From positions 48,863 through 112,862 of the IMG/VR virus record IMGVR_UViG_3300025372_000010: DNA of 64,000 nt; one strand, given 5' to 3'. Both the position numbers and the translations under genes were made by a program. Under the pieces are notes generated by a model that was not told where the DNA came from, made no database searches, and was given only the letters and a program-made list of their open reading frames with translations. The stretch is from a virus. Its lineage: Duplodnaviria > Caudoviricetes. Of this stretch, positions 1 to 64,000 are shown one piece after another; the first letter of the stretch is position 1, and each line of letters starts with the position of its first letter.

Positions 1-1
1 T

Positions 2-166
2 GAAGATGTAACTCCTGATCAAGTGGTAGGAATGATCCATAGTAATATAGTTCAGTTGATGATGGTTAATCAACAAGCTAGTAAGCAGTATGAACAACAT
101 CAAAAAAGTAGTAATGCTCCTAGCTTTAATCTTCAAGCAGAGCTTAATAAACTAGGTATAAAATAA
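2..166 (+). CDS. 3' end of upstream gene (partial), probably a virion protein
   Basis: Open frame from the window edge (EDVTPDQVVG...LNKLGIK) to TAA at 164-166, 18 nt before the next ATG. Confidence 0.7.
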   Translation, partial: EDVTPDQVVGMIHSNIVQLMMVNQQASKQYEQHQKSSNAPSFNLQAELNKLGIK

Positions 167-184
167 TACATATCCTACAAACTT

Positions 185-3100: not shown

Positions 3101-5731
3101 TGGATTCGTTTTGGTGAAACTGCTAGAAAGATATTAACTAAATATGGTGCAACTAAAGAAGATATCTATCATAATATAAATAATGTAACTGAAGATAATT
3201 ATAATGATATATCTTTTAGTTATGGAGAACCTATTGCTGCAGCTCAACCTGCTCCTTTAGAAACTACTGAAGATCAAACTGCAGGTGGTACTAATATTGA
3301 GCAAGTAGATCCTACAGCAGCTGAAACTCCTGCTGAGCAAGCTGTCACTACAGAATTACCTGATAATGTGATTGCTGGTATGGATACTGGTGCTCAACAA
3401 AATCAAGGAGCTAGTCAGTCAGTAGTTATTGGTAAACAAACAATCAATGTAGGTGACAGAATCACTGGTAATCCTGGTGGTGATTTAACTGTTACAGGTA
3501 TTAATTCTAAAGGTGATGTTACATTAGCTAATGATGAAACTCAAGTTACACTTCCTAAAGATGACTTAGCTCAACTAATGGCTAATGGATATAGTCAGAT
3601 AGTTAAAGCTGCAACAAAGACAACAGGCAAAGCTACTCCTAAAAAGACTACAGCTCCTGTAGTTAAGAAACCTACTTTTGAAAATGGTGAGATAAACAAT
3701 GTAGAGCAGACTCGTGCTGCTATGCTTAATCAAGCTAATAAGAAAGGTGGTGTTGATGATCAGTTAGAAAAAGAAACTCCTGGTGTAGTAGAAGGTAAGA
3801 AAGTAATTAATGGTGCTACTAAGATTAACAATCGCACTGAAGACTTTACAGCTACTACAGATAATAAAGGTAAAACTATTCGTCAGATTACTGGTGTAAA
3901 TAGTAACTACCCAATGATTATGGCTACTAGTCGTATTAATATGGGTACTGGTATTACATTAAGAGTAGATACTAGCTTAGCTAACTATGATGAGTATGAG
4001 TATATTAATACTAATAATGTAACTAAGCGTTCTAAAGAAGATTTCTTTGAGAATGGTAAAGTAAAACAGTCAGCTGTAGAATCTTTTCCAATTGCTATCT
4101 ATACTAACTATAATGGTCAAGAAGTAAAATTAGGTTACTTACCTACTGTTGAATGGGTAAATGCAAAGTATCCTAATGGATCTACGGTGAATGTCGTAGA
4201 TAAAACTTATGATAAAGATGGTAATGAACAAGATAATCTTGGACCTAACTTAGCTCAGTTGAGAAAGATTAGACAAGATTTGATGAATGGGTTTAATACT
4301 GCAGGTAAGACTGAATGGACAGCTATAGTAGATAATAAATCTGATGGTAATCTTAGAACTATATCTGGTGTTAATAAAGTAGCAGATGTAGTGAGCCCAG
4401 GTACACAGATTGGTATTATAAAAAATGGTGTTGTTTATACAGGTAAGAATGTAGAAGCTACAGGTCAGATTATACTTCCAAGTGAAGTATCTACTACTAT
4501 AGAGAACAAGAATACAGAAGGCTGGCCAGTTGTATTGATTAATACTCCTACTGGTAAAAGATTAGCAAGCTGGGTTAGTGTTCCAACATTGAATAAAGAA
4601 CATCAAGATCTTATTTTAAATGCTTGGAGTGCGTTCCATTTATTAAACAATAATGCTAAAGCTAACGAGCCACATGATACTAAGTCTAAAGCTTATGAAA
4701 TAGCTAGTGCAATATATGAAGCATATGGGGCTAAGCTTGCAGTAGATGAACAACCTAACTTTAAGCTTTTACAAGACTATGTTAATGACTACATCACTTT
4801 TACAGGTGGTAAGAATGATGAGAAGAATGGTTATAAAAAGTACGATCCATTGAAGCCAGGATCATCTTTATTGACTATATTGCCAAATGGTACTTTGATT
4901 ACATGGGTAGTTCAAACTGGTGTTGAAGCTAACGATAAAGTGTTAATGACTGATCCGTCCAGATTGACTGATGAGAATAAGAACAAGTTCTATAACTTAG
5001 CAGATCAAGTGCACTATAATATTAAGTTTAGTGATAAGAATAATAATGGTATCAACTCTGATAGTAAGATGAGATTTTTAAGTATGGTGGGTGATTCATT
5101 AATTAAGTCTGAGCCTATGACATATAATGAGCATGTATCTAATCTATTAGAGACAAACATAGAGCCAGGTATTCCTTTAGATCCTAAGCAACCAGATGGA
5201 GAAAGAGTTTATTTCTCTAACCCAGTATTGAATTTTAGCTTTACAGAGCCTACAGAAACTAAAGTTACCACTCAAAAAGAAAATGCTGCTGTTCCAGCTG
5301 AAACTACTCTTGTTACTACTAATATAGAATCTAAGAAAGCTGATATAGAAAGAAGAAGACAAGAGCATATTGACTTAATTGAGCATAATGAAAATGCAGA
5401 TGGTAGTGAAGAATCACAAGCATATGACACATCTTGGAGTAAAAAAAATGAATATGAATACTTTTCTGGTAAAACAAAGAAAGAAGTAGTAAATAAAATA
5501 AATGCTAAGTATGATGCTGAACTAGCTGCTTTAGAAGGTGGTAAAACCAAAACTGTAAAGAGCTTAGCTGATGAATTATTAAATATGGACTTTGGTGAAG
5601 GATTAACTGACTTTGGTAACTTTGATCAAGGCGTGATTGATGGAGATCTTCCAGGAGATAAGAAATCAATAGCAACTAAAGTGAATGATATAGTAAACGA
5701 TAAAGAAATAGATAAAAACTGTAACGGATAA
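185..5731 (+). CDS. Giant virion cargo/ejection protein 1 (1848 aa)
   Basis: Very long ORF directly upstream of the vRNAP. Gly/Ala-rich amphipathic N-terminal segments and a single Cys. Matches the crAss-like arrangement of three large cargo genes. Confidence 0.75.
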   Translation: MDSLNFLMPDNINTDNLVPQDNPTGSLLDILQTSGPGPSQPITFDPIKSFQFPSSPTSEAAAAPLFFDAQRTNVDRYTNSAYFKQLGFNPLEGNANEYKYGSMQTWGDTMGNALGGAWKLGANTFIQGWEGWGNMANALTSWDSSKLVGSPEQLYQSNQEQNAIMNKYAIFATPESDAGGVFNRKFFGDMVQQTGFALGTIAQFLSEELITYGLSTEFSLAKLGIKAPSWLGKVVTKSELLADMTKLGENIYKDRTFAEKFVENARKFVPFLETGEEMAKYSKAGAGAAQIAAIGVGGLRRTLAEANMSFTEARMEAANTYGDLYNKLYDEEVDKTGEVPSGDKLARMKEIAMKASSDNFFVNSGILMLSNRLQFDNLLGKFSFGREILGEGGGFAEDILKVTGKVGENETTKVYQKGLMGTPGLYGKIAEDFGKKEAAWQVAKSLGKHAFKWETSEGLQEVFQDLSNQSLQNYYYDLYHGIKGADFSPSLEKAWAQENQGNQGLKTFLMGALTGSLISPIDFAIGRAKTYGMSTAEQRQTREADVKDAVEMLNGFYENPNRYLNEHIANVKLQDHVAKTMDEAIANRDKYVFNNFRDSGFAKMVSAAIKTDMYESVMSTLRNYGESMTDQDFKEAFGMEKNKYNIDSIKGFFDKVASSVEEFHKNWKTLRDRYADSVIPEIYKDGTPEKKISLAAKRALDDAIEILATNSYKGQNAIVRATDLQTQMAATPTIGGSLENAFRILGHAGETAQEAYLLDQEITSLESADKIDRETRKLITAKKKQLAALTDWLKNQDALEKMGIEEKRRFNKARKSFRDYVNSKNEQAKLDVSIKNDDFEDIYKNFLDYIQLNSDAKQYVDAYNVLANPTKFILMHERMLDAILKTEETYKKEHEAEIKGEKPEAEEKTGSLADLMEKGLTVDEANPEKVEKEEAEKKNVDKQALETELHDAYRTYAQEAYEQGNTPAKPSEWIRFGETARKILTKYGATKEDIYHNINNVTEDNYNDISFSYGEPIAAAQPAPLETTEDQTAGGTNIEQVDPTAAETPAEQAVTTELPDNVIAGMDTGAQQNQGASQSVVIGKQTINVGDRITGNPGGDLTVTGINSKGDVTLANDETQVTLPKDDLAQLMANGYSQIVKAATKTTGKATPKKTTAPVVKKPTFENGEINNVEQTRAAMLNQANKKGGVDDQLEKETPGVVEGKKVINGATKINNRTEDFTATTDNKGKTIRQITGVNSNYPMIMATSRINMGTGITLRVDTSLANYDEYEYINTNNVTKRSKEDFFENGKVKQSAVESFPIAIYTNYNGQEVKLGYLPTVEWVNAKYPNGSTVNVVDKTYDKDGNEQDNLGPNLAQLRKIRQDLMNGFNTAGKTEWTAIVDNKSDGNLRTISGVNKVADVVSPGTQIGIIKNGVVYTGKNVEATGQIILPSEVSTTIENKNTEGWPVVLINTPTGKRLASWVSVPTLNKEHQDLILNAWSAFHLLNNNAKANEPHDTKSKAYEIASAIYEAYGAKLAVDEQPNFKLLQDYVNDYITFTGGKNDEKNGYKKYDPLKPGSSLLTILPNGTLITWVVQTGVEANDKVLMTDPSRLTDENKNKFYNLADQVHYNIKFSDKNNNGINSDSKMRFLSMVGDSLIKSEPMTYNEHVSNLLETNIEPGIPLDPKQPDGERVYFSNPVLNFSFTEPTETKVTTQKENAAVPAETTLVTTNIESKKADIERRRQEHIDLIEHNENADGSEESQAYDTSWSKKNEYEYFSGKTKKEVVNKINAKYDAELAALEGGKTKTVKSLADELLNMDFGEGLTDFGNFDQGVIDGDLPGDKKSIATKVNDIVNDKEIDKNCNG

Positions 5732-5734
5732 CAT

Positions 5735-8700
5735 ATGTCTTGTATATACACTATAAATGGTAAGCAGTATTCTGACTCTGAGGTTAAACAAGTCTTCAGT
5801 AGTATCCTAGCTGTTCCTGGTAATGAAAACTTATCGAATGAGGAACTAGTAGCTAAGATTACTGAGCTTAGTAAAGATAGATTTGTTGATGTAAATCTAT
5901 TTAGCCCATATCAAGAATCAGCTTACACTAACATCATCTTTTCTGAGGTTGTTGACCAACTTGGTGTTTTAAAACCTAAGATGGAGATTAAACAATCTGC
6001 AGGTAAAGTATTTGGTGATACTTATAGTCGTTTCAAGAATGAAGCTGCTAAGTTTAATGCTATCTCTGAAAAGATAACATCAGAAGAAGCTTACAATCAG
6101 TTTAAGCAAGTTGAGGGTGTAGCTGCAAAGTTTCCTGAGATTGCTGCTTTAAACTATAATCAGTTCAAGAGTATGGTTGATCAGTTCAATCATATTGTAA
6201 ATGAAGAGAACTGGAAGAAGTTTACTCAACTAGCTGAGCAAAAGCTTAGACAGCTTGGGTTAACTATTAAAGATGGTAATATTGTAGAAAAGAAGTTTGA
6301 TGCTACAGAGATTGCTAAGAGATTAGAAGAGGATCAGAATGATGAGAATGAACCAGAGTATGAAGATTCTGAAAGAGAAATCAATGAGTCATACGAAGAT
6401 GGTCGTGCATTTAGATTATCTCCTAAAGATACTGCTAGCTATCGTGTAAAGTTATTCTTATCTACTATTCCTAACTACGAGAGAAACATCTTTGGTAAGA
6501 AAGACTTTGTGTCTATGGACCAAGTGTTTGAAGACTTGTTGCAAACAGCTGCAACTCTTCCTGTAGTAAACTATAAAACCTTTACAGAAGCTTTATTATC
6601 TAAAGCTGAGGGTAAACCTTATTTACATAATGTAGTAGGTAAGTTAGATAGATTACAAAAAGACGGTAACGTAAAGCTTCGTAATGAAATCATTACAGTA
6701 TTTAATAAAGCCTTTACTGACCATGTGCTTGTTTTATGGAACCCTTCTGAAGGTGGTGTTAAAGTTAAAGTGATTAGCTCTAACCGCAATAGTATAATCC
6801 GCCAAATCAAGCAAGACTGGATTGAAGCTCAGAAAAGATCTGCTATTATCTCTACAGATACTATTGGTGATCTAGTAATAAATAAAGAGAAGGTTAAAGA
6901 GTTATATGATTCTTTAAAAGAAGCTAATAAGTCTAAAGATATCACTGATAAGAAAGCTTGGGTAGCTGAGTTCTTTAAATCAGTAGGTATTGACTTTGAT
7001 GCAAAGATGATTGATGCATTAGTAAAGAGTGCTAATAACGGTTTCTTCAAGTATGTACGTAGTGCTAACTTTGCTGCTATGTTCAGACCTAATGGTGTGT
7101 TTGATAACATCATGAAGACTTATTCTAAAGAGGGTGATGGTAAATCAGATAACCGCTATGAAGATTCTAATAATGCTATGATCCATGAGCGTGCATTTGA
7201 CTATCTAGCTCAGATCTTCTTTGACTTTAATGGTAATAAATATCAGACTGGTACTTTCCAGAATGGTGAGAATAAAACTATCTACTCATACATCCAACCT
7301 AGTTATTTAGAGACAGTTAAGAAAAAGCTTAATAATGGTGACGGTTATTTAAAACGTCTATCAGAAGCTTCTTTCTCTAAATCATCTGAGGTAGTTGCTC
7401 AGTTATTAAATAACCTTACAGAGAATAGTAATAACTTTGTATATCGTATTAGATATGCAGATAGCTTAAAGAATGACACTGCAGAGAAAGCAGGTATAGT
7501 TCGTAAGCGTATGAGCCGTAAAGAAATGTTATTTGATTCATTAGTTAAGTATATGAACTCTGGTAAAAATACAGGGTTGTATAACATGTTTACATTGTCT
7601 GATAAGACAGTTACGCCTGTTATAGAAATGACTAAAACTAAGCTTGATCCAACATTTGATATCTTATTACGTCCTTCTAAGAATACAACTGTAAGAACTA
7701 GCTTTGATTTCAAAGATGGTTTTGCAGATAAATTATACACCCTAGCTAAGTCTGAAATAGATCGTATGGTTGACTATGCTAATAATGCTAATAAAGCAGG
7801 ATTAGGTATAAACAACTTTGATAAGTCTAGTCAGATCTTTTATTTATTCCCAGCTCTTAATAACAAAGAGGATGCTGATCTTAAATCTATTGTAGATTCT
7901 ATACAAGCGGGTAATCAGCCATCTTTAGCAGATGAGAACTATATCAAGAAAGTATTAGTGGATGTGTTTAAAAATGATGTAATGAAGTCATTTAGAACTC
8001 TTACTGATATAGGATTGATTAAGAAGTCTGAAGCTTTAGATGAGAATGATAAGAAGACTATCTTATTAAACTATGATCAATTAGATAAAGACTATCTAGC
8101 TCAATATTCTAATCTAACAGATAAGCAAAAAGGAGTTATGATAATATCTGAATTTAAGTATAATAACTTAAAAGCTCAGATTAATAGTTTACAAGTGTTA
8201 GGTGCAGATCCTGCATTATTTTACAAGACTAAGATTGGAAAAGCTAAAGAAGCTCTTACTACTTCTGATGTTAACTCTATAGTAAAAACTACTATGGATG
8301 AATTCAGTAAGCGTGCTGCAATGTTTATTGCACCAGGAGCTCAAGGTACATTTGAGTGGACTGACTTAAATGGTCGTCCTGTTGATAGAACAAACTATGA
8401 TATAGTTACTATCAAAGATGTGGTTAAGAATGTAGGTGGTTTTGAGAAAGTTAATATTGCAGATGCTCAGGAGTTAGTAACTCTACAAGAGCATATTGAT
8501 AGATTAATGTCTGAAGGTCGTATTGACTTAGAAGACTGGCAGTCTATTACTGATAAAATAGAAAAGAATAAAGGTAAGTTTTATGAGCTTAGCGATAAAG
8601 AAAAGCAGATTGCTTTACAACCAGCTAAGCCTGTATATAGTTCTAATACTTTTGTAGATGGATTTAGTAGAATAGACTATATTAAATCTTCTACATACCC

Positions 8701-11700
8701 AATGATCCCTGAAGTAATTCAAGGAACTGAGTTAGATAAAGTTAGAGCTTGGATGGAGAATAATAATATTAGCTCAGCACCTTTTGAGTCTGCTAAAAAG
8801 ACTGGTATTCCTGCAGCTCCATTAGAGTTGTTTGATGCTAATGATAACTTTGTAGAGCCTACTAAAGAAAGATTAGCTGAAGTGAGACAAACTCTTAACA
8901 GAGAAGGTCTTCGTACACAGCAAGAGATCCCAGCTCAAAAAGATGAGATCAACGTAGTTTCTCAGATGGACCGTCAATTATTTGAGGGTTTACTTGGTAT
9001 TAAAGGATTTATGTTTGATGCTCATAGTTACACTGGCTCTGAACTTAAAAAGCTATCAGAAGCTATTCGTATTGCTTTCTTCTATAAGAACCAGCAGGTT
9101 TTGGCTGATAGATTAAATATAAAGATCACTGATAACAATGTAGTATTTAAAGATCAAAAAGCTTTAGCTGATTTATTAAAAGAAGAAGCTTTAGATAGAG
9201 ATTTCTCTGCTAATGATATTAAAGCCATCCAAACTAATGAGGATGGTAATCTTGTTATTCCTATCTACTTAATGGCTAAGGGTAAGAGATTTGAAGGATT
9301 AGTAACAAGTATTTTCTCTAAGTTAGTAAAGCTTAAAGTGCCTGGAACTAGTTTAGTACAGGTGTCTGGTGTTGGTACCAAAGTAAAAGAGTCTGAGCTT
9401 ACTGATAAAGTAAAGAATCAAATCATCTATACAGATGCTTATGATGCTTCTAAAGGATTACAATACATTCGTAAAGAAGCTACAACAGTTGATGATAAAG
9501 GTAATGTAAAGAAAGGTAAGGCAGTTCAACCTGCACAAGTATTTGTTTCTCAATATCTTAAAGACAAAGAAGGAAACTTAATAGACTTAACTAAGTATGT
9601 TAAGAAAGATGCTCAAGGTAGAATGATATTAGATAGTAATAAGATCGATAAAGACTTATTACAGTTTATTGGTGCACGTATTCCTAACCAAGGTCATTCA
9701 TCAATGTTACCTATAGAAGTGGCAGGGTTCTTACCTAGCTTTATGGAAAACACTGTAGTAGTGCCGGACGGTGTCACATCACAAATGGGATCTGACTTTG
9801 ACGTAGATAAGTTATACTCTTATATTAGTTCTATAGAGAATGTTACTGATGATAAGATCTCTAGTCAGAAGTTTGATAGCTCAATCTATAAGAATGACTA
9901 CGAATCTTTAATGAGTGCTTCAGAAGCTGAGTTATTACAAATGTACAAAGAAATACATTGGTCAGTGTTAACTCATCCGGATGTATTTGATAAGATCACT
10001 CGATCTACAGAGTTTCCAGATATTAGTAAAGAGATTGAAGTATTTGAGAAAGCAGGTTTATTAGAAGATAAGGTGTCTGCATTGCCTATGGACTTTGAAG
10101 CTCAGATTAAAACCTTTTTAGATAACCGTAGTGGTAAATCTGGTACAGGTATATTTGCTCAGATGATTTCATTCTTAGCTGAGCACCAAGATAAAGATAT
10201 CAAGTTAAAGTCTTTCTTAGATAACAATGATAATCCTATACAAGAGTCAGTTAAGTTCTTAAAAGACAACGGTGAAATATTAAAGCTATTTAGATTTACG
10301 GCTGAGGGTAGAAGTGAGACTGAAAATGGTGAGCGTTCTAAGACTGATAATACATCTATATTCCTTTCTGAATCAGTGGATAATGCTAAGAATAAGAACT
10401 TAGATAAGTTCAACTTAACTGTTGAAGCTATGAACGCAGTGCGTGCTGTGATAGGATTAAGTTCAGAAACTGGAGAGATTGCTGATATTAGATATGTGAC
10501 TAGATTGATGCCACAACCTATTATCAAGAACTACTTAAATGAAATAGAGTTATCTCGAGATAGCTTTAGCGATAAGTACACTAACAAGTTTGATATTGCT
10601 ACAAAGATGATTAACACTTATAATAGTTATTTATCTGATGTAGCTGAAATAGATATAGATCAAAGATTATTCTCTCCTGCTACATTACTAAAAGCTTTAA
10701 TAGATGGGAAAGACTTCGGTGAGAAGTTAATCAATGATGCAAAGAATGGTGTATTATTAAATAGTCAGCAACAAGCTCAGCTTAATGAGTATATAAATAA
10801 TCAAGTATCTATCTTAAAACTTTATACTCAATTAGATAATATTGGTTGGGCAATGGGTAAGTTGATGACAGGTACCAATGTTACAACAGCAGGTATTGGG
10901 TCAACTTTATTTGCTGTAGCAGATAAGTTAAGACAAGTAAAAACTGTTGCTCTTAATACTGTATTCCAAAACACTGAACAACTATTAGGTGATATTGCTT
11001 ATGATGGTACGATTATAAATCCTACTAGTCAAGCAGGACATGCTATGAATGTAGCTCTATCTTTTGGTAGAGATGTATTATCTAAGCTTGCACCTATTCA
11101 CTTTGGTGCATCGTTTGACCAATTGAGAGACAAAGTAGTTAGAGAAAGATTTAAAGATTCTAATATATCCAACTGGGGTAAGACTAAGTATATGGAGTTA
11201 AGTGAAGACTTAATGAAATCTGCATATGCTTACTTATTAACTAACCCTGAGTTAGGAATGGTTCAAGATACTCAAAATGATCGCACACGTTTACTTTATG
11301 GAGCTAACGGTGAAAGATCTTTAGGTGAGCGTATTATAGCTCTTAAAGAACAGCTTAAAGATACTAACTACTTTATAAATAGATTACAAGTTACAGCTCC
11401 TATAAATAAAGCTGCAGATCCTTATTTAGTTAAATATAGATCTCCATTCAGTCAAGATATAGATGAGCAGGCTAACAATAAAGGATTCTTAGAGTTAATA
11501 TTAAGCGGTGATAAAAACCAGATTGATATTGCTCGTGATCTAGTTACTTATGCATATCTTACTGGATATGATCAAGGATCTTCTTCTTATTTGAAGTTTA
11601 TCCCTGTAGAGTACTTAATGTTAAACCAGAAGTTTACTAACGGTTTAAAAGACTTTGCTTCTACTTTTGATGACATGGGTACCTTCTATAAGCAGTTTAT

Positions 11701-42971: not shown

Positions 42972-43687
42972 AATATCTTATTGTATTAATAGCACTATGT
43001 TTTGTAACTGTAATAAAGTGTCATGGTCAAATAGCTAAGACCTCTACAGAGAACTATAAAGCTAGTTTTGAGAAGTCAATCGACATCTCTCAGTTTATGG
43101 ACTATGACGGTCCACAGATTCCTATACAGATACTAAAGTGTGGAATTAATGATGAGATGTATGAGATGTATCCTGAGCTTAAAGAAAAGCGTGTAGGACT
43201 TGGTGTAGCTAACATCTCTATGGAATATTTAGAGAATCTTAATAGATTCAAGTTTACTGAGGATAAAACAGAGATAAAGAACCGTATGGTTAAGCAGTTT
43301 CAAGCTAGCCAAGCAGGTATCTCTGAAAATAAGCTAGATGGTCGTGGTAAGATCAATCTAGCTAAATACTTTGTTACTATAGAATGCTATGACTATTCTG
43401 TATCAGAAGATGAAACAGTATCAGCTAAGCTATCTACAAGCCAGTTAATGGTCACTAGGATCGGTTTACAGGTCAGATTTACTGACGCTGAGACTGGTGT
43501 AGTTTTTTCTGGATCTGGCCTTGGTGAGGCTAAAACCACTAAAGAAACATCAGGATTATCTGACGCTAGTCTAGATCCTGTTAAATTTAATCAATCGACC
43601 ATATCTATTGCTACAAAGAAGGCTTTGGATATAGCTTGTTCTCGTATATTGGATAGAATGGTAAAGAAAGGAATCTTTACTAAGTAA
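42968..43687 (+). CDS. CsgG/HfaB-like exported protein
   Basis: Signal peptide; NRFKFTE, AKYFV.I..YD and GLQVRFTDAETG.V.SG.G pattern of the CsgG-like fold. Confidence 0.6.
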   Translation: MKYLIVLIALCFVTVIKCHGQIAKTSTENYKASFEKSIDISQFMDYDGPQIPIQILKCGINDEMYEMYPELKEKRVGLGVANISMEYLENLNRFKFTEDKTEIKNRMVKQFQASQAGISENKLDGRGKINLAKYFVTIECYDYSVSEDETVSAKLSTSQLMVTRIGLQVRFTDAETGVVFSGSGLGEAKTTKETSGLSDASLDPVKFNQSTISIATKKALDIACSRILDRMVKKGIFTK

Positions 43688-45078
43688 TGAAACAGTTTAT
43701 ATTATCACTAATACTAGTAGTAATACTACCAATATATGCGTTCTCACAAACCATTGTACAAGTTTTTCAAGATCCCTGTACAAAGATTACTAGTACTTTT
43801 GTCATACCTGTTAGTGGTAGGACTACTATTGTGTTCTATAATAAGTCAAGGAGCTTTTCTGCTGCTGACGTGGCCAGCGGTGCTTTTCAAACGTGGATTA
43901 ACCAAGTATATGAAGACTATAAAGCCTATTCTCCTTGTTCTGTTTCTCAAGTGTCATCAACTGCTACACAAGTTACAGCCTCTGCTGTATCCTCTGCAGT
44001 AAGTACTGCTGTATCTGCTGCAACATCTGCAGCTGCAAGTGCGGCTGTAAGTTCAGCTACTGCCGGTGCAGCCTCAGCAGCCACATCTAGTGCTGCTTCT
44101 TCTGCAGCAAGTTCAGCTGCAGGCTCAGCTGCTTCTAGTTCTGCAAGTAGCTCTGCCACCAGTTCATCGGCCTCCACCTCTTCTGGGGGAAGTACTTCTG
44201 AATCTAGTAGCAGCAGCTCATCAAGCAGCTCGTCACAAAGTGAGGGTAATTCTTCCTCCTCTTCTTCAGATAGTAAGGGTAGTTCCTCTTCATCATCTGA
44301 TTCTAAGTCTGAATCTAAATCAGAATCTAAGTCTGAAAGTAAATCTGAGAGCAAATCTTCTAGTAAAGAGTCTAAAAAAGACTCTAAGTCTAGTAATAAG
44401 TCTCAGGCTAAAATGAATCCTATTATATTCAACTCTGATCTCACAGGAGGCCAGAATATGGATAAGTCTATTGCTTTGGTTGCTAGTGGAGGTATGTCAC
44501 AGTCTTCTATGACTGGAGCAGACTCTTGGGGCATTAGTGCTATGGCATGGAGTAATCTCCAGCAGTTTGTACTATCTAGTAGATATACTAAGATGAACTT
44601 TAATAATGGTAAGATGGAGAGTATATCCAACTGGGGATTTACTACAGCTCTTATGTATGGTAATTTAACTAGTTTTATTACTTATGCGTATATATACCCT
44701 ATGGGTAACTACGGGGTGACAGGGGCCAACTACACACTCACTTTTTCTAAATCTTCCTATCTAAAGAAAGATGGTACCTCTGATAAACAGTGGGTGCTAT
44801 CTCATTCTATGATGTTCTTTTACACAAAACCTTTTAGTCTTTCTAAAAGACTCACACTTGGTCCAGAACTTTATGTTTCAGGTAGTCCGGTTACCTATAA
44901 TACTAAAGAAAATATATTTGTAGAATCCCATGATATAGGATTCTTTACTGGTATCTCTGGTGATTATGCTATTACTAAGAGATTTAAGTTTAACATGGGT
45001 TTGAGAACTAGTGCTAATACTAATCCTCAAGTACCCATGCTATTCTTTATGGTAGTAGGTTCTAAAATAAACTTATAG
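43687..45078 (+). CDS. Secreted Ser/Ala-rich protein with C-terminal outer-membrane beta-barrel
   Basis: Signal peptide (AFS-Q), two-Cys N-domain, ~150-aa S/A linker, alternating amphipathic strands ending VGSKINL. Confidence 0.6.
   Translation: MKQFILSLILVVILPIYAFSQTIVQVFQDPCTKITSTFVIPVSGRTTIVFYNKSRSFSAADVASGAFQTWINQVYEDYKAYSPCSVSQVSSTATQVTASAVSSAVSTAVSAATSAAASAAVSSATAGAASAATSSAASSAASSAAGSAASSSASSSATSSSASTSSGGSTSESSSSSSSSSSSQSEGNSSSSSSDSKGSSSSSSDSKSESKSESKSESKSESKSSSKESKKDSKSSNKSQAKMNPIIFNSDLTGGQNMDKSIALVASGGMSQSSMTGADSWGISAMAWSNLQQFVLSSRYTKMNFNNGKMESISNWGFTTALMYGNLTSFITYAYIYPMGNYGVTGANYTLTFSKSSYLKKDGTSDKQWVLSHSMMFFYTKPFSLSKRLTLGPELYVSGSPVTYNTKENIFVESHDIGFFTGISGDYAITKRFKFNMGLRTSANTNPQVPMLFFMVVGSKINL
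44296..44355 (+). repeat. 12-bp coding tandem repeat S(D/E)SK x5
   Basis: Degenerate codons encode SDSK-SESK-SESK-SESK-SESK. Confidence 0.8.
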
Positions 45079-57354: not shown

Positions 57355-57663
57355 AGCTTTTAAAATACTGCTTAATACTCCACCAGATTATTTTTCTGAG
57401 AGCTTTGCGTTGGTCTTTCTTAGGTTTTGTAAAGAAAACCTGATAGACTTTGAATACTGGATCCATAGTTCTTCAATGATTTGTATGCCTGCCATGATAG
57501 CCAAAGCCACATATGCTAAGCAGAAGATGATGTAAAAACCGACTAGATATATTATCTGTCGTTGATGTACTTTGAAAGTACTTTCGTTACGATTGTTTTT
57601 AGGATTTCCCATACAATAATAGTTAGGATAATTAATTTCATAGTTTTGTAAAGATAGTGAAAT

Positions 57664-57692
57664 AAAAAAGCCCAGTGTAGAAACACTAGGCT
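57664..57692 (-). terminator. Intrinsic terminator after tmRNA
   Basis: AGCCTAGTGT-TTCT-ACACTGGGCT followed by TTTTT. Confidence 0.75.
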
Positions 57693-57718
57693 GTATTAAT
57701 CAAAGTAGAAGCTGTGGA

Positions 57719-58143
57719 GGTGGACCCGTTGGGAGTCGAACCCAAGTCTTGATAAGTACCAATAATACCATTCTTACATGCTTAGATCTATTTGATATAG
57801 GAGTTTGCTGTAGCGTATCCTATGTTTCAAGCTTGCGTATTTACTACAGTCCGAAGCTTCATCTTAATCAGTAGTTGGGATCGCAGGTCAGTGCTATCTA
57901 CCACCACTCTGTTTTATGACTACAGAGAAAACGCTTGTAACTTTCTGTTTCGAGGTTGTTACCACCCAGTTGCCCTTAAGCTGCAATAGCTACAGGAGCG
58001 AAAGCCATAGCAATGATGCTAGCACCTTCTGCAACACGCTCAGATTGACTCTTTACGGTTATTTTTCGATAGATTGTTTAGACTCTACCAGTCTTTGCAT
58101 GTGATACTACCTGTCTCATATCAATCAATTCCAGGGCGGGCCC
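57719..58143 (-). ncRNA. ssrA: tmRNA
   Basis: Acceptor GGGCCCG/CGGGUCC with G3:U70; T-arm UUGGG-UUCGACU-CCCAA; tag frame 57976-58056 ending VAIAA-stop. Confidence 0.92.
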
Positions 58144-58152
58144 AGAATATCA

Positions 58153-58247
58153 GCACGACCGGAGGAATCGAACCTCCATTGCTAGCTCAGATATTCATAC
58201 TATATATAACACCTGGTTTGCAGTTTTACCATTAAACTATAGTCGTA
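58153..58247 (-). ncRNA. tRNA-like RNA 1 with aberrant extended anticodon arm
   Basis: ACGACU/GGUCGU stem, D-arm UAGUUUAAUGGUAAAAC, T-arm GGAGG-UUCGAUU-CCUCC; no canonical anticodon loop. Confidence 0.65.
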
Positions 58248-58411
58248 TAAAACAGTTGTTAAGCACAACTGTGGAAAGCCAACTATTTGTAGGGGTTGCC
58301 TAACAGGTTGTCAACCTAGTAATACGTGCATGCATACCAAATAATCCATGTAGTAACTACTTCTACTTGCTATTATTCAGGACGGAACTAGTAGCTCGTT
58401 AAGCTACGCCA

Positions 58412-58512
58412 GGGAGGATTCTAGGTATCGAACCTAGCTAAAACAGCTTAAGTATTCATATACTTTTGCAGGGTATATAATACTTAGATATTATAGTTCC
58501 ACAATATCCTCC
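58412..58512 (-). ncRNA. tRNA-like RNA 2 with 14-bp anticodon-like arm
   Basis: GGAGGAU/AUCCUCC, T-arm CUAGG-UUCGAUA-CCUAG, long stem capped by CUGCAAA. Confidence 0.6.
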
Positions 58513-58516
58513 ATGT

Positions 58517-58633
58517 GGCTATGTTATTAATACTCCGATCCAGTTGTGCATACAGTTCTGCAGAAACTTCTATGAGGCGGTATATCTTTAAAAAGGAGCT
58601 CCAATTCCTTTAGAGTGTTTAATAACATCAGCC
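58517..58633 (-). ncRNA. Stem-closed structured RNA (family copy A)
   Basis: GGCU-G-AUGUUAUUAA / UUAAUAACAU-AGCC closing stem; starts 7 nt downstream of a promoter-like element. Confidence 0.6.
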
Positions 58634-58639
58634 GTACTA

Positions 58640-58670
58640 CTAAGTTACAACTTTTTAGTACTTTTACAAA
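58640..58670 (-). promoter_or_regulatory. Promoter for the ncRNA cluster
   Basis: TTTG-N19-TAACTTAG, one mismatch from consensus. Confidence 0.55.
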
Positions 58671-58965
58671 GAAATTACTATATATCTTTTCATACACCAC
58701 TACCGGTCATGCCGAGGTTGTTACAATCTTCTCATCAATATAGTAAATAATAAGGTCGTTGATTACTTTTACGGTTCAGACCTGGAAAGTTTTACCGACT
58801 GTTTATTCTGCTTCTACTACTCGGTTAATATAAGTAGCTTCCAGACGTAGAATTTCACCAACTACTCCCAAGTATCCGGTTTTATCACGGCTCCCTACGA
58901 TCTCAGATCAAGGGGACATCTCACGTAGCCGGTTTTATTGCTACTGACTTCAACTTGGTAATATT

Positions 58966-59700
58966 TTAGTGGAAGTATACTTTTTTAGTTTCCTTCCAGT
59001 TATAGATATCTTGTAATGTATCCAAGTAATCTTCAGTTTTACTAAAATCATGAATCTCTTTACAACGCTTAGGCATCTTACGTAATAATCTTTCTAAGCT
59101 AAAGTCTTTGTTATTCATCATAACAATAATAGCTGAAGCAAAACCACGTTTGTTAAACCCAGCATAATAAACTGATAACTGCTTAATGGTCTCAGCATAA
59201 TTCTTAGCTTTAGTATAGCTCTTAATCTTGAACTTACCAGCTTTAAATGCTGCTTCTAAACCAGAACCAGACGCTGCACCGTTGTTTAACATCATCATAA
59301 TGATACCATGAGAAAATGCTGGATATAAATCAGCAAAAGATAAATACAAACGATAGTCGTTACCTTCTGGAATACTAGCAAAACTAGATGCATAGTCTCT
59401 ATTGTTCCAAGACTTTGTTGTTGACTGTAACTGAGCAATCTCTAATGTACTCATCTCATTATCATCAATAATATAATCTACAGGGATCTGTAAATTAACA
59501 CAAGCTTTTAATCTATGTTGACCATCAGTAACTACATAGTTACTATCAACTTTGATTGGAAGCTTTTGACCCATATGCTGGATGCTTTCCATTAAGTTAA
59601 TAACATTGGAGTCATTGATAGGTCTGTTGTCTAGTCTAAAACTAAACTTAGTATAATCTTTAGTTTGGTAGATCTTACCTACCACTTTATCTTGTTTCAT
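58966..59700 (-). CDS. ParB/Srx N-terminal domain protein
   Basis: NRPI...L.ESI...G...PIKVD....VTDGQHRLKA. Confidence 0.8.
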   Translation of the reverse strand: MKQDKVVGKIYQTKDYTKFSFRLDNRPINDSNVINLMESIQHMGQKLPIKVDSNYVVTDGQHRLKACVNLQIPVDYIIDDNEMSTLEIAQLQSTTKSWNNRDYASSFASIPEGNDYRLYLSFADLYPAFSHGIIMMMLNNGAASGSGLEAAFKAGKFKIKSYTKAKNYAETIKQLSVYYAGFNKRGFASAIIVMMNNKDFSLERLLRKMPKRCKEIHDFSKTEDYLDTLQDIYNWKETKKVYFH

Positions 59701-60081
59701 GTGAAACTTTTTAGATGTGAATAATTTAAAAAAGGTCTATCTCAGGGTTACATAGTTCTTATGGATCTAGTACTGTCCTGATCAGGCTACTAGGTATAGT
59801 TATCGTTCGTTTGACGGAGCTCTATCATCATGTCGTACTACTGAATAGAAAATACGGGTTTGCGGATACTGTCCTGACTAATTTAGTTAATACGCTACTT
59901 AGCTCCTAAGATCAGACCTTTCATTTTATGACTATCATAGGTGACTCTGCCGAGGGTCTTATGTGTCCACTACAATCAGTCAATTCGTTAGCTTGGGCTC
60001 AGGACTTATTAGTATAATAGCGTAGTTGTATACCTATTATATGTTGCCTGGCCCGTTGCTATTAAGAAGTTATAATACTCG

Positions 60082-60366
60082 TTATTTAAGTATCACAGTA
60101 ATATATGTTAAGTTCTTACCTCGATATCTTCTCATAATAACACCCTTATTAACAAGACTCTTTAAAAGTCTTTTAATAGATGATTCAGACATATCCATCT
60201 CAGAAGCCAAGCGTTTTTCTCCAACAGTTGTTTCGTTGGTTATACTATCAGAGTAACTAGCTAATAGAGAATATAATCCTTTTTCTGTAGGAGTTATTTG
60301 AGGATCTCTTACTACTAGATTACTAATGATACCAAAGTTGCCTTTTAATCTTGAGTTCTGTTCCAT
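60082..60366 (-). CDS. Winged HTH protein (HTH_36-like)
   Basis: EKGLYSLL.SY...LASEMDMSESSIKRLLKSLVNKGVI; TAGATTTG upstream at 60396-60403. Confidence 0.75.
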   Translation of the reverse strand: MEQNSRLKGNFGIISNLVVRDPQITPTEKGLYSLLASYSDSITNETTVGEKRLASEMDMSESSIKRLLKSLVNKGVIMRRYRGKNLTYITVILK

Positions 60367-60414
60367 GAAAGTGTGTGTTGTGTGTTATGAGACTACAAAT
60401 CTAGTACACTGTTT

Positions 60415-61062
60415 TTACAAATCAGCGTCTTCATCTTTCTTTTTTGATAAAAGATAGTCTAGATATGCATCTACATCTCTTGTAGGATCAGGAGGTGCTA
60501 CTTCTACATCATCTCCACTAAGAAGTTTTCTGTATGTCTTATAGTCTCCATTAGATTTCTTGATGAGCTTAATACGATTAATGATAGCTGTAGGATTAAG
60601 TGTTTCCTCTGCTGAGTTTTCTAACTTATCTTCATTATCATCGTCATCATGTTGTCTACTATCTATTAAATCTTTAATAGCTAACATCTTACGAAGTATT
60701 TCAGCTTTAACACGCTGATCTTCATCCATTTGGCTTCTTCTATCTTTATCATAAGCATCTAAGAAAATCTTAAATGTAGTGACAGCAGCTCTTTGGTATT
60801 CAAAGAAATGTAATAACAAGAAAGAATATTCTTCTTCATTGTTGATATACTTTAATGCTGCTTCTAAGTCCGCTGTTTTAGTAGCAACTTCTTCTGGAGC
60901 TTCTATGTTTTTCTTATCATAATTCTCATACTGATCTATAGCATTTATTATAGTAGTAAATATGATAGCTTCAGCTGCATTATCTGCTGCTGATTTAGAG
61001 ATTCCACAAGCCAAGTTTACATTGTTTATCTTGTGGTTAAATGTTACGTTTTTTAGAAACAT
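60415..61062 (-). CDS. Hypothetical protein
   Basis: 215-aa ORF. Confidence 0.7.
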   Translation of the reverse strand: MFLKNVTFNHKINNVNLACGISKSAADNAAEAIIFTTIINAIDQYENYDKKNIEAPEEVATKTADLEAALKYINNEEEYSFLLLHFFEYQRAAVTTFKIFLDAYDKDRRSQMDEDQRVKAEILRKMLAIKDLIDSRQHDDDDNEDKLENSAEETLNPTAIINRIKLIKKSNGDYKTYRKLLSGDDVEVAPPDPTRDVDAYLDYLLSKKKDEDADL

Positions 61063-61084
61063 ACATCAGTTGTTTAAAGGGTTA

Positions 61085-61483
61085 TTAACTAGATAGTTTG
61101 TCAGCGATAAACTTAACAAACTCTTCAGGAGTTTTAGTATCTCCTGCCATATAATCTTCTATTAAGATCATATCTTTAATGCTATCTACAGATGCAGAGA
61201 CATGTTCTCTGATATAGATGCATGGTTTATCACGACTATAAAGACTAATAGATACATCAGCAATCTTTGTAGAGTTGCCTTCTTGTATACTGTTCTTTAA
61301 TTCAGATCTTTTAGCTTCAAGCTCATGAATCTGATTGTCAATTTTAAGAAGCTCTTTGAAGTCTTTAGACTTCTCAATCTTAGCTTTAATAGCTTCAGAT
61401 GTACCTTTGTTACGAGCTATTAATTCAGCTCTCACCTTCTCTGCTAGGGCTCTAGCAATAGTTGTTGTTAGTTTTTTAGACAT
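61085..61483 (-). CDS. Hypothetical coiled-coil protein
   Basis: 132-aa ORF. Confidence 0.7.
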   Translation of the reverse strand: MSKKLTTTIARALAEKVRAELIARNKGTSEAIKAKIEKSKDFKELLKIDNQIHELEAKRSELKNSIQEGNSTKIADVSISLYSRDKPCIYIREHVSASVDSIKDMILIEDYMAGDTKTPEEFVKFIADKLSS

Positions 61484-61856
61484 TGTCTATTGGTTTTTAT
61501 TATTAAATGAATGAATGTAAAAATAACCAGCTTCATGTACTGGCTGTGAAACAGTTTCCAATCATTATATAGCGTAGTTTATACCTATATAGTGTTAGTG
61601 TTGTATGCATGTTCAGAGCTTTGATATGAAATATATTACTCACTGCGAACATAACCCGTTTACAACAGATTCTTCTGCAATAGCTCATTAGTTGATCAGG
61701 CTTAATGTCTAGATTCGGACAAGAGCGTGCCCATGCTAGTTAACGCTAGCTTCACCGAGTTAAATAAGTTTAAAATAAGGGTTTTAGAGATGCCACCCAT
61801 AAACTGCTAGTTGCGTGAAGTCCAACCGGTCCAAGTCCTGCTCTAGGGGAAGAATA

Positions 61857-61991
61857 TTATCGTCTGTTCAAAACAGAGTTAGACCACTCATTAAAACCTT
61901 CTACAGGTTCTATGCGAGGATAAAGATCCTCATCTTGAAGTGGCTGTCTTTCTTGGATAAATCCAAATAGTTTAAGAATCCATCTTTTCAT
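61857..61991 (-). CDS. Small protein (44 aa; not in ORF track)
   Basis: MKRWILKLFGFIQERQPLQDEDLYPRIEPVEGFNEWSNSVLNRR. Confidence 0.5.
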   Translation of the reverse strand: MKRWILKLFGFIQERQPLQDEDLYPRIEPVEGFNEWSNSVLNRR

Positions 61992-62011
61992 GACTGATAA
62001 CTATTTAAGAG

Positions 62012-62446
62012 TTAGAAAGCATCGACTTGATCAGCTATTTCTAATGCTTGATCGTATGTTTGAGCCCACACTTTATAACCGTTAATAATCCAGAGTTTTT
62101 TATCTCCATCTACCTGTTGTGGTGATGGATCTTTACCCCACTCTGTTTCAGGGTTAAGAACACATACAGGAATCTCTACGAATCCTGAAGTTACGTACTT
62201 TCCAGTTTCAAATACAATGTTGTTCTTCACAAGGAAGTTTAGCATACCGATGTTTTCTGAATAGTCTTTGATTAAGACTTCGTTGTCTAATAGTAAAACA
62301 TCAGGTAGGTTAGTAGACGCTGTAGCATATGGAATGCCATCTTCTGTGTCTATTAGTGTAATTGATGGTCTATTATTGGCATATCTACCAATATTTACTT
62401 GGACCATTGAGCTCTCGCCCCATGCGTGGATGATGAACTTGTTCAT
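62012..62446 (-). CDS. DUF4313-like protein
   Basis: PYATASTNLP...IKDYSEN...FL..N.I...TG....SGF...P. Confidence 0.6.
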   Translation of the reverse strand: MNKFIIHAWGESSMVQVNIGRYANNRPSITLIDTEDGIPYATASTNLPDVLLLDNEVLIKDYSENIGMLNFLVKNNIVFETGKYVTSGFVEIPVCVLNPETEWGKDPSPQQVDGDKKLWIINGYKVWAQTYDQALEIADQVDAF

Positions 62447-62579
62447 GTTTGATGATTTTATAATGATGGTGATGAAATATATGCTGATGTACGTTTCTTG
62501 GTACAAAGCAGCCAGAGAACAACACACCGATTAGCATGCCAACCAGTATGATTTTAACGAATAGGTTAAGATCTTTCAT
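62385..62579 (-). CDS. Possible small lipoprotein
   Basis: Hydrophobic N-terminus with FSGC; overlaps the downstream gene. Confidence 0.4.
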   Translation of the reverse strand: MKDLNLFVKIILVGMLIGVLFSGCFVPRNVHQHIFHHHHYKIIKHEQVHHPRMGRELNGPSKYW

Positions 62580-62587
62580 AGTGTATA

Positions 62588-62968
62588 TTAGTTTATTATA
62601 CGAAAATAGATCTTATTTGGATAACTTCCACCAAATACGTATTCTGTAACAGGACAGAGCCACAATCTATGCTCTTTAGGCTTGTGATAGTAATAACCGC
62701 CATAAGGAACGATAGGATGGCCTAATTCTTCTAAATTAGGTATTCCCATGTACATATGAGAGATCATGTCTGTATGGCCTTCAAATGGTCCGTCAGATAT
62801 CTCTAAGGTTATCTTGCCTGTATTGTTAGACAGATAGTCTAAAAAGGTATCAGCTCCACCGACCATCATAAGATTGGCTTGCGTGCCTAATCCTTGGTCT
62901 AGATATTCTGGTAGGTCAATGTACCAGATTCCATCGTCTTCTTTGTAGAAGGAATGTTTTGCTTTCAT
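62588..62968 (-). CDS. Conserved phage protein (DUF6717-like)
   Basis: WYIDLPEY...MVGGADTFLD...LWLCPVT.YVFG..YP..IY. Confidence 0.65.
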   Translation of the reverse strand: MKAKHSFYKEDDGIWYIDLPEYLDQGLGTQANLMMVGGADTFLDYLSNNTGKITLEISDGPFEGHTDMISHMYMGIPNLEELGHPIVPYGGYYYHKPKEHRLWLCPVTEYVFGGSYPNKIYFRIIN

Positions 62969-62989
62969 AATGTTAATGAATTGATTTAA

Positions 62990-63018
62990 AAATGAGCCCC
63001 TCATAGAAATGAAGGGCG
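62990..63018 (-). terminator. Terminator-like hairpin
   Basis: GCCCTTCAT-TTCT-ATGAGGGGC then TCATTTTT. Confidence 0.5.
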
Positions 63019-63168
63019 TGTTAACCTAACAACTGTATGTTGTCTTTTTCTTTTAATGGATTGAAATCCCCTTTTGTTTGGGTGAAGAAAGCTGTTGCAG
63101 GGACTTCCTTCACCCCAGGATTGAGGGCACTCTTCCTGTTTGTTTGTTCACTTGACTGAACAAGATTA

Positions 63169-63266
63169 TAACCATGCTACCAGCAAACGAGCTTAACTTG
63201 CACTTTTAGTGGAGGTTACTCACTATATTGGGCCCTCACCCCAAATTCGTCTGATAGCATCGGTTA
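63169..63266 (-). ncRNA. Stem-closed structured RNA (family copy B)
   Basis: UAACC-G-AUGCUAUCAG / CUGGUAGCAU-GGUUA. Confidence 0.6.
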
Positions 63267-63274
63267 ATGATGTA

Positions 63275-63379
63275 TAACCATGCTGCTGGTAGTGAGCTTT
63301 AAATCTGGTTTCTTAGGGCAGAAGAAGGTGACTCTTTATGTTACTGACCCACTGTAACACTAGCTAGCAGCATCGGTTA
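63275..63379 (-). ncRNA. Stem-closed structured RNA (family copy C)
   Basis: UAACC-G-AUGCUGCU / AGCAGCAU-GGUUA, compensatory changes relative to copy B. Confidence 0.6.
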
Positions 63380-63625
63380 ATAGATTATGCACCCAGCCAT
63401 GTGGAACGTACCGTCCTGGGACTGATAGACCAATGGCCGAGCTGCAATAAGGTATGACTAGAGCCCTGCTGTACCCTACACTCCATTACAGATCAGCTCT
63501 GTCTTATAAAGGTCTCACACAAGAGTTCTATAAAGTCTTAGTGGCGTGGGAATGACTCGTAGTCAATTAGTTTTAGAATGGCACCCGTTGAAGTTATCGC
63601 TGGGTCACCATCCATAATGATGTAA

Positions 63626-63717
63626 GTTTTGGAGGTATTACCCATAGTACTTCCTAACAATAGTAGTATATATATTAACTACTATTGATTAGGGCTCACC
63701 CATAGTACCTCCAAAAC
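63626..63717. repeat. Long nested inverted repeat with internal direct repeat
   Basis: GTTTTGGAGGTA...TACCTCCAAAAC enclosing CCTAA-CAATAGTAGT...ACTACTATTG-A-TTAGG. Confidence 0.75.
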
Positions 63718-63720
63718 ATG

Positions 63721-63975: not shown

Positions 63976-64000
63976 AGAATAAATAGTTTTTGGTGTGACC

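Follow-up and report, generated by a model that had tools for sequence, protein, structure and literature searches.

The window analysed here is a stretch of 64,000 nucleotides (nt), the final 64 kb of the 112,862-bp virus record IMGVR_UViG_3300025372_000010, which derives from an uncultured freshwater crAss-like phage. The crAss-like assignment rests on open reading frames (ORFs) of 1848, 2625 and 1261 amino acids, on a match to a crAss-type virion protein family and on a family-B-like DNA polymerase. From 53.7 kb to the end of the window, all credible genes are carried by the minus strand. This stretch also contains almost all of the long gene-free DNA in the genome, at 57613-58965, 59701-60081, 61484-62011 and 63005-63720. 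This gene-poor part of the genome, probably its early region, codes for an HTH_36 protein and a ParB-like protein. It holds three stem-closed elements, copies A, B and C, which an earlier reading of the sequence (hereafter the original prediction) had proposed to be RNAs of one family. Each is closed by what will be called a handle, namely a short helix and a second one beginning with A-U and U-A, with one unpaired G between them (Y-G-AU / AU-R). The three elements are as follows.

58517..58633, minus strand: copy A, 117 nt, with a closing helix of 4 bp, an unpaired G, a 10-bp helix, a 5-bp helix, a 5′ hairpin and an apical domain with GAU/AUC.
63169..63266, minus strand: copy B, 98 nt, with a closing helix of 5 bp, an unpaired G, a 10-bp helix (one U:G), a 5-bp helix (two wobble pairs), the hairpin UUGGG/CCCAA and an apical GAG/CUC; its fold has a z value of -3.4.
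63275..63379, minus strand: copy C, 105 nt, in tandem with its twin B at a spacing of 8 nt, with the handle UAACC-G-AUGCU as in B.

By sequence and predicted structure, A, B and C are genuine folded RNA modules. Their common layout, a long closing rod followed by a side hairpin and an apical domain, is the same by position. The closing stem (GGCU/AGCC in A, UAACC/GGUUA in B and C) and the unpaired G are followed by an inner helix of 8-10 bp, which begins with AUG in all of them and reads AUGUUAUUAA/UUAAUAACAU in A, AUGCUAUCAG/CUGGUAGCAU in B and AUGCUGCU/AGCAGCAU in C. Positions 18-22 form a 5-bp helix in 3/3 copies. From position 23 onwards, each copy has a 5′ hairpin, AAAGGA/UCCUUU in A, UUGGG/CCCAA in B and UUAC/GUAA in C, the sequence of which is wholly different among the three while the pairing is kept in each. 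An A-rich joint then leads to the apical domain, for which the closing pairs at positions 46-50 are GAU/AUC or GAG/CUC. Through the last three helices the 3′ strand is uninterrupted, the side hairpin being on the 5′ strand only. Within the closing helix, 97.7% of the cells of A, B and C are paired, and 8 of the 15 pairs have changed on both sides and still pair, a number that none of 500 shuffles reached. When the partner strand is slid out of register, pairing amounts to 19-60%. Thus, the architecture read in the original prediction, with a bulged-G closing stem, AUGYUR facing YARCAU with compensatory changes, a 5′-side hairpin, an apical GAG..CUC or GAU..AUC element and a tandem of B and C, was recovered on the minus-strand reading.

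Folding energies alone leave the strand undecided. The minus strand was assigned because gene context and wobble pairs favour it. The G:U pairs that point to this strand number one in A and three in B; copy C has none, and its strand is indeed ambiguous from such pairs alone, as had been remarked. Short ORFs starting from the conserved AUG (10, 14 and 33 codons) were considered and rejected, their products being unrelated and their stops unaligned. A pseudoknot involving the G-rich loops of the 5′ hairpins and an ACC(N)CC motif was not adopted either (3-4 bp, with differing registers).

The alignment of B with C exceeds the score of 300/300 shuffles, by which measure the two are true paralogues and recent tandem duplicates. 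Beyond the closing helix and the layout, A shares nothing with them. As far as public data reach, A, B and C are specific to one phage. A model built on A, B and C together (R1), to which A scores 82.9 bits, found no extra copy in the phage's own genome, in the added DNA of a longer contig, in five related whole records, in phage phi14:2 or in 20 other loci. By blastn, the region matched none of 50,697 phage records, and the 12 matches of the exact B/C handle pattern across IMG/VR are all in unrelated coding DNA.

Two further RNAs of the same region have to be considered together with these copies. One of them, element D, was found through a weak match to the A/B/C model.

59929..59982, minus strand: element D, 54 nt, UGACU-G-AUUGUAG...CUAUGAU-AGUCA, with the same handle and a small head; orthologues occupy the same place in relatives.
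59730..59922, minus strand: 193-nt RNA, closed by GAAAGGUCU-G-AUCUUAGG / CCUGAGAU-AGACCUUUU and followed by a U run, with a near-invariant 38-nt core AGUAGUACGACAUGAUGAUAGAGCUCCGUCAAACGAAC.

In every related phage examined, the D orthologue is directly upstream of an RNA of ~190 nt. Across the D family (10 distinct sequences), 92.7% of the cells pair and 14 of 23 pairs are compensated, with many G:U pairs; in the handle, the C-G and U-A pairs, the unpaired G and the first A-U pair are invariant or nearly so. The 193-nt RNA, which matches no Rfam family, is kept in at least 12 related phage contigs. Its closing reads GGUCU-G-AUC.../...GAU-AGACC, and in 8 phages the outer closing pairs covary around an invariant CUGAUC/GAUAG. 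The heads of D and of the 193-nt RNA hold conserved unpaired motifs. In some relatives a further module, E (12 bp, an unpaired G, 8 bp), gives rise to an E-D-193 array. The handle of B and C (UAACC-G-AUG / CAU-GGUUA) and that of D in two relatives (UAACU-G-AUU / AAU-AGUUA) show few differences, namely one compensated terminal pair (C-G for U-A) and, within the inner helix, the third pair. The A/B/C model matches the D elements of other phages with E values from 2.4e-4 (locus L042) to 0.14, and a 9-mer, AGAGUCACC, is common to D and copy C. In eight metagenome loci, the covariance-model search advised with the original prediction had matches in the D family only, and it brought no further copy of A, B or C.

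A strict descriptor of the handle was written (closing helix of at least 4 bp, a pyrimidine before the unpaired G, then AU, with no fewer than 10 non-wobble pairs). On both strands of the phage's own genome (226 kb), it returned 12 matches at 11 distinct places, one match being a B-C hybrid. Five of these 11 places are A, B, C, D and the 193-nt RNA, all on the gene strand and all within ~3 kb of non-coding DNA, as against 6 scattered matches in the other 223 kb. Over 13 sources, 20 matches were counted in 40 kb of non-coding DNA versus 9 in 200 kb of coding DNA. A loose descriptor allowing any bulged G was uninformative, with ~100 chance matches per strand; its AU-rich candidates in L002/L003, L004, L017 and L020 failed to fold as predicted or were within coding DNA. 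Also set aside was a 115-nt candidate in L038/L043, which runs antisense to a gene.

The transcriptional surroundings of the copies contain the following features.

58450..58485, minus strand: long anticodon-type arm of transfer RNA (tRNA)-like RNA 2, GUAUAU-G-AAUACUU with AAGUAUU-AUAUAC, a loop-capped bulged-G helix with a z value of -3.5.
58188..58216, minus strand: long arm of tRNA-like RNA 1, with the bulged helix GUAU-G-AAUA, as in RNA 2.
57718..58143, minus strand: transfer-messenger RNA (tmRNA), the last gene of an RNA cluster headed by copy A, followed by a terminator at 57669-57692.
58640..58670, minus strand: promoter-like site of the Bacteroidota type, TTTG-N19-TAACTTAG, ending at 58640, 7 nt upstream of A.
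62996..63017, minus strand: terminator-like hairpin and U run, ending the 0.7-kb non-coding block that contains C and B.

ARAGORN and Rfam place the tmRNA and one tRNA-like gene in block 57613-58965; nothing was returned by them on A, B or C. The two tRNA-like RNAs, 58413-58512 (RNA 2) and 58154-58246 (RNA 1), both on the minus strand, are located between A and the tmRNA. They have acceptor and T arms and, as anticodon arm, a 13-bp bulged helix ending in a loop of CU-GCA-AA in one and of 3 nt in the other. Both bear a loop-capped version of a helix similar to the handle. The tag encoded by the tmRNA is predicted to have 26 residues and to end in AIAA; a tmRNA also occurs in the related phages L018 and L019. 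The promoter element that the original prediction had placed 7 nt above A is present as a predicted site. However, such sites number ~46 per strand genome-wide, so that this one is weak evidence when taken alone. Upstream of it, at 58692-58719 on the minus strand, there is a 28-nt block, AACCUCGGCAUGACCGGUAGUGGUGUAU, identical in L019, where it stands directly 5′ of the tmRNA gene. This block may be part of a conserved tmRNA leader, and its position means that transcription may begin earlier than the promoter-like site. In the same gene-free block, a ~200-nt RNA-like element downstream of the ParB-like gene (58762-58963, minus strand) shares ~80% identity with L003 and is collinear, at 61-71% overall, with L017, L021 and L023; it has covarying hairpins, the loops of which contain AUAAAACCGG.

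B and C are not separate genes but lie within the 0.7-kb non-coding stretch at 63005-63720. Read on the minus strand, these 716 nt fold with a z value of -4.7 versus shuffles, as a chain of stem-closed modules. Two other members of this block may be mentioned. One is a 112-nt module at 63454-63565, in which two closing helices of 5 bp flank an unpaired C; the other, at 63626-63717, is a hairpin of 92 nt with two 25-nt direct repeats. The third of the non-coding blocks is followed by a terminator-like site at 61525-61545.

Considering these data as a whole, the best explanation, which we put forward tentatively, is that A, B, C, D and the 193-nt RNA would be small RNAs made of a handle and a head, with a common factor docking on the bulged helix. 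A common binding or processing factor is likely, since A, B and C have the one-base-bulged closing helix in common with neighbouring RNAs that are better conserved in related phages. Indeed, because the handle is kept while the heads vary in size and shape, and because it also occurs capped on tRNA-like bodies, a docking site is expected; the loop-capped form on the tRNA-like RNAs fits such a site better than an end-processing signal. In the scheme that we infer, from transcription and excision to the existence and identity of the factor, the modules would be transcribed early within longer non-coding RNAs. A would head a cluster with the tRNA-like RNAs and the tmRNA, and C and B would be carried by a 0.7-kb leader with a terminal terminator. 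Cuts in the short AU-rich spacers would release the modules, and A might be freed by RNase P cutting at the adjacent tRNA-like RNA. The closing rods would then confer stability, and the sequence-constrained bulged helix would dock one common protein, of host or phage origin, the heads being different. A precedent for such a release is found in phage T4, where small stable RNAs of the tRNA cluster (species 1 and 2; rnaC/rnaD) are co-transcribed with tRNA genes and set free at tRNA processing. Copy A, which ends 4 nt upstream of tRNA-like RNA 2, is so placed. In contrast, C and B are not beside tRNA-like genes, and no sequence relation with the T4 RNAs is expected. By analogy, the logic of the present RNAs would be that of Y RNAs or of protein-sponge RNAs, and not that of 6S RNA. 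A bolder form of this proposal, which we regard as speculative and rather unlikely, may be imagined. In this form, at least seven RNAs (A, B, C, D, the 193-nt RNA and the two tRNA-like RNAs) would share one docking helix for one protein, neither a recognisable Ro60 nor a catalogued one, and the heads, some of them tRNA mimics, would steer this protein to or from the host RNA-handling machinery early in infection.

Several observations weigh against the handle-and-head proposal. No candidate binding protein was found by searching for TROVE, DUF2828 and reverse transcriptase domains in six records, and none of 18 neighbouring proteins shows an RNA-binding domain in Pfam. In alignments of A with the two other copies, 63 and 292 of 300 shuffles score as well as the true sequences, and a model built on B and C only (24 pairs) gives A 17.6 bits, the level of unrelated coding-DNA hairpins. 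As A is indistinct from chance by both measures, the set has to be described as a twin, B and C, plus a third module, A. Of the three-copy family in the original prediction, the kinship of B and C is therefore retained, and the status of A as a copy in sequence is given up. No homologue of A, B or C was found outside the one phage, the metagenome matches being D elements, and the assemblies of this phage are near-identical; therefore, the structure rests on three paralogues. The D-family model, for its part, does not detect A, B and C, the heads of which are larger. Moreover, the handle descriptor was defined after the data had been seen. The register of the bulge is also ambiguous, since an unpaired G with an A-U pair can be drawn as a G:U pair with an unpaired A. 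Finally, the arms of the tRNA-like RNAs read U-G-AA, unlike the Y-G-AU of the handle. As a separate matter, a GC-rich 72-nt hairpin with an unpaired G, at 44148-44219 on the minus strand and antisense to the gene 43687-45078, has a score with the B+C-only model that matches A's; its resemblance is probably due to chance.

The main rival would see in these elements processing or stability cassettes, that is rods of 19-20 bp with one bulge that cut early transcripts and protect their ends, the heads being functionless. Such cassettes would account for modules standing in tandem and separated by short spacers rich in A and U (C from B by 8 nt, A from tRNA-like RNA 2 by 4 nt, D from the 193-nt RNA by 6 nt here and by 3-7 nt in relatives), for closing rods of similar overall length in all four of A, B, C and D, and for blocks finishing in terminator-like sites. 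A parallel is provided by the RNase III hairpins of phage T7, which are bulged, ~20 bp long and located between early genes; bulged hairpins of ~20 bp between the units of a long early transcript are what is predicted here. Nevertheless, this reading, though deserving attention, seems unlikely. The GAU/AU and the flanking pair are invariant in the D and 193-nt families, which a plain double-strand cleavage signal does not need, and the heads of D and of the 193-nt RNA have conserved unpaired motifs. Helix P1 varies from 4 to 12 bp. Furthermore, a similar bulged helix is found capped inside tRNA-like RNAs, where cutting would destroy the RNA. It is in these invariant bases, elaborate conserved heads and capped forms that the handle departs from the T7 hairpins. 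A quite unlikely possibility is that the RNAs are Y-RNA-like partners of a host Ro60 (Rsr), the bulged helix mimicking the Ro60-binding stem and the heads, including tRNA-like ones, being those of the phage. Y RNAs, and YrlA RNAs (RF02553) with Ro60, have the same plan, with ends joined in a helix with one bulged base and a variable or tRNA-like head, and tRNA-like RNAs occur in the cluster studied here. A Bacteroidota control genome carries a TROVE gene. The Y-RNA motif is GNCGAAN0-1G near the 5′ end in bacteria and GGUCCGA in vertebrates (Chen et al. 2014, PMC4201824). At the corresponding position, B and C read ACCGAUG, the 193-nt RNA GGUCUGAUC and A GGCUGAUG; the geometry is alike but the sequence is different, with 4/6 fixed positions fitting in B and C and a bulged base that is G (or A), not C. 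In addition, the YrlA model matches neither the whole genome nor the elements alone at E<=10. No TROVE or DUF2828 gene was detected in the phage record, which is 87% complete, or in the five related ones, of which three reach at least 92% completeness. The reverse transcriptase of a retron, likewise absent from these six records, led to the rejection of that candidate.

The original prediction itself had favoured decoys of the 6S type, mimics of an open promoter that would titrate the host sigma-A holoenzyme. The idea is suggested by small, stem-closed, non-coding RNAs, apt to act as decoys, in a phage that has to take over host transcription, and by the promoter-like site upstream of A. However, A, B and C are not 6S RNA. 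The comparison with Rfam that had been advised gave no match to the 6S (RF00013) and 6S-Flavo (RF01685) models down to E<=10, with inputs of 141-231 nt. Instead of the ~180-nt rod of 6S RNA, in which a large two-sided central bubble separates a closing from a terminal stem, the three copies show a branched junction of 98-117 nt, about half the length of 6S RNA, and they are not conserved even in close relatives. Hence, a role as 6S-like decoys is scarcely credible. More generally, no Rfam family is reached by A, B and C, either at the gathering score in the 64 kb or at E<=10 in 7 kb and with the elements alone (141- and 231-base inputs). The alternative offered at the time, a new class of non-coding RNA, is kept in a modified form, since nothing catalogued matches and the closing helix is one found in unclassified RNAs that related crAss-like phages keep, with covariation. 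The first interpretation is thus partly supported. It may also be asked whether the elements act in cis, as ligand-sensing aptamers or as antitermination signals like the put RNA of HK022, on read-through of terminators. Three-way-junction domains that stand in tandem and are closed by a P1 helix are usual in riboswitch aptamers, several terminators interrupt the operon, and C and B are ~150 nt upstream of the terminator-like site that precedes the DUF6717 gene. We nonetheless consider cis regulation improbable. A belongs to an all-RNA cluster, with no protein gene there to regulate; two more hairpins stand between B and the terminator; neither a riboswitch nor a put family is matched in Rfam; no pairing that could alternate between terminator and antiterminator was observed; and relatives that retain the downstream gene lack A, B and C. 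Still less probable is a role at the level of DNA, as single-strand hairpin promoters or priming signals, as binding sites for an HTH or ParB-like protein, or as mobile inverted repeats. It is true that the virion polymerase of the crAss-like phage phi14:2 transcribes denatured DNA (bioRxiv 10.1101/2020.03.07.982082), that HTH_36 and ParB-like proteins are encoded in the region, and that A, B and C are lineage-specific and insertion-like. Such roles are disfavoured because the wobble pairs are strand-specific: the G:U pairs are on the RNA-equal strand, and the template strand would have A:C mismatches. The arms are 50-190 nt apart, unlike known protein operators. As for mobility, the internal hairpins covary in different sequence, which terminal inverted repeats do not need, and neither target-site duplications nor copies elsewhere in the genome are observed. 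A miniature inverted-repeat mobile element was accordingly discarded, there being three copies only, two of them adjacent. A hammerhead core, a C/D-box K-turn, signal recognition particle RNA and 5S RNA were also rejected, on sequence or for want of a partner gene.

crAss-like phages are among the most abundant phages, and the sole case studied makes very abundant early non-coding RNAs. In phi14:2, a crAss-like phage of Cellulophaga, early non-coding RNAs arise, at levels above most mRNAs, from two intergenic regions close to the genome end (Drobysheva et al., bioRxiv 10.1101/2020.03.07.982082). The likeness is in the setting. Both are crAss-like phages of Bacteroidota with long gene-free stretches among short genes beside the genome end, and those of phi14:2 are transcribed from the earliest time point. 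On another hand, no sequence or model similarity to bases 1-9000 of phi14:2 was found, and no structure has been published for its RNAs. If the handle-and-head proposal holds, a sequence-constrained helix borne by several RNAs would offer an experimental hook, in which the handle could serve as bait and the unpaired G could be deleted. In any event, a tempting 6S label is removed, and true duplication is confined to two of the three 'copies'.

Other assemblies of the phage that carries A, B and C are available, from a bog-lake metagenome and as a 123,572-bp contig in the European Nucleotide Archive (ENA). They are 99.98-100% identical to the record across the shared part and therefore offer no usable strain variation. 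DNA of this phage is also present in sample 3300003815 and in runs SRR5260929 and SRR5260694. Elsewhere in the non-coding blocks that hold the copies, the DNA is 80-86% identical to that of phages whose proteins are only ~44% identical. Among 5.8 billion proteins, the closest relative of the neighbouring DUF6717 protein is 60% identical.

A hairpin of the same region occurs twice, at ~60013-60041 and ~61565-61595 on the minus strand, each time near the start of a non-coding block; its loop, GUAUAMAACUACG, is conserved and its 7-bp stem covaries. At the end of the window, three independent assemblies stop exactly at base 64000, the contig end, whereas two others read through; the record consequently lacks ~10.7 kb. 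The break may correspond to a physical end or to a repeat that interrupts assembly. Just past it, in the same phage, two copies of a pseudoknot-like motif are found at L024:1615-1680 and L024:1905-1968. In each, a stem-loop is followed by UAUAAACCRUGUUARGC and by a strand with complementarity to the loop, and this pairing covaries between the two (ACUAG/CUAGU versus UCUGA/UCAGA).

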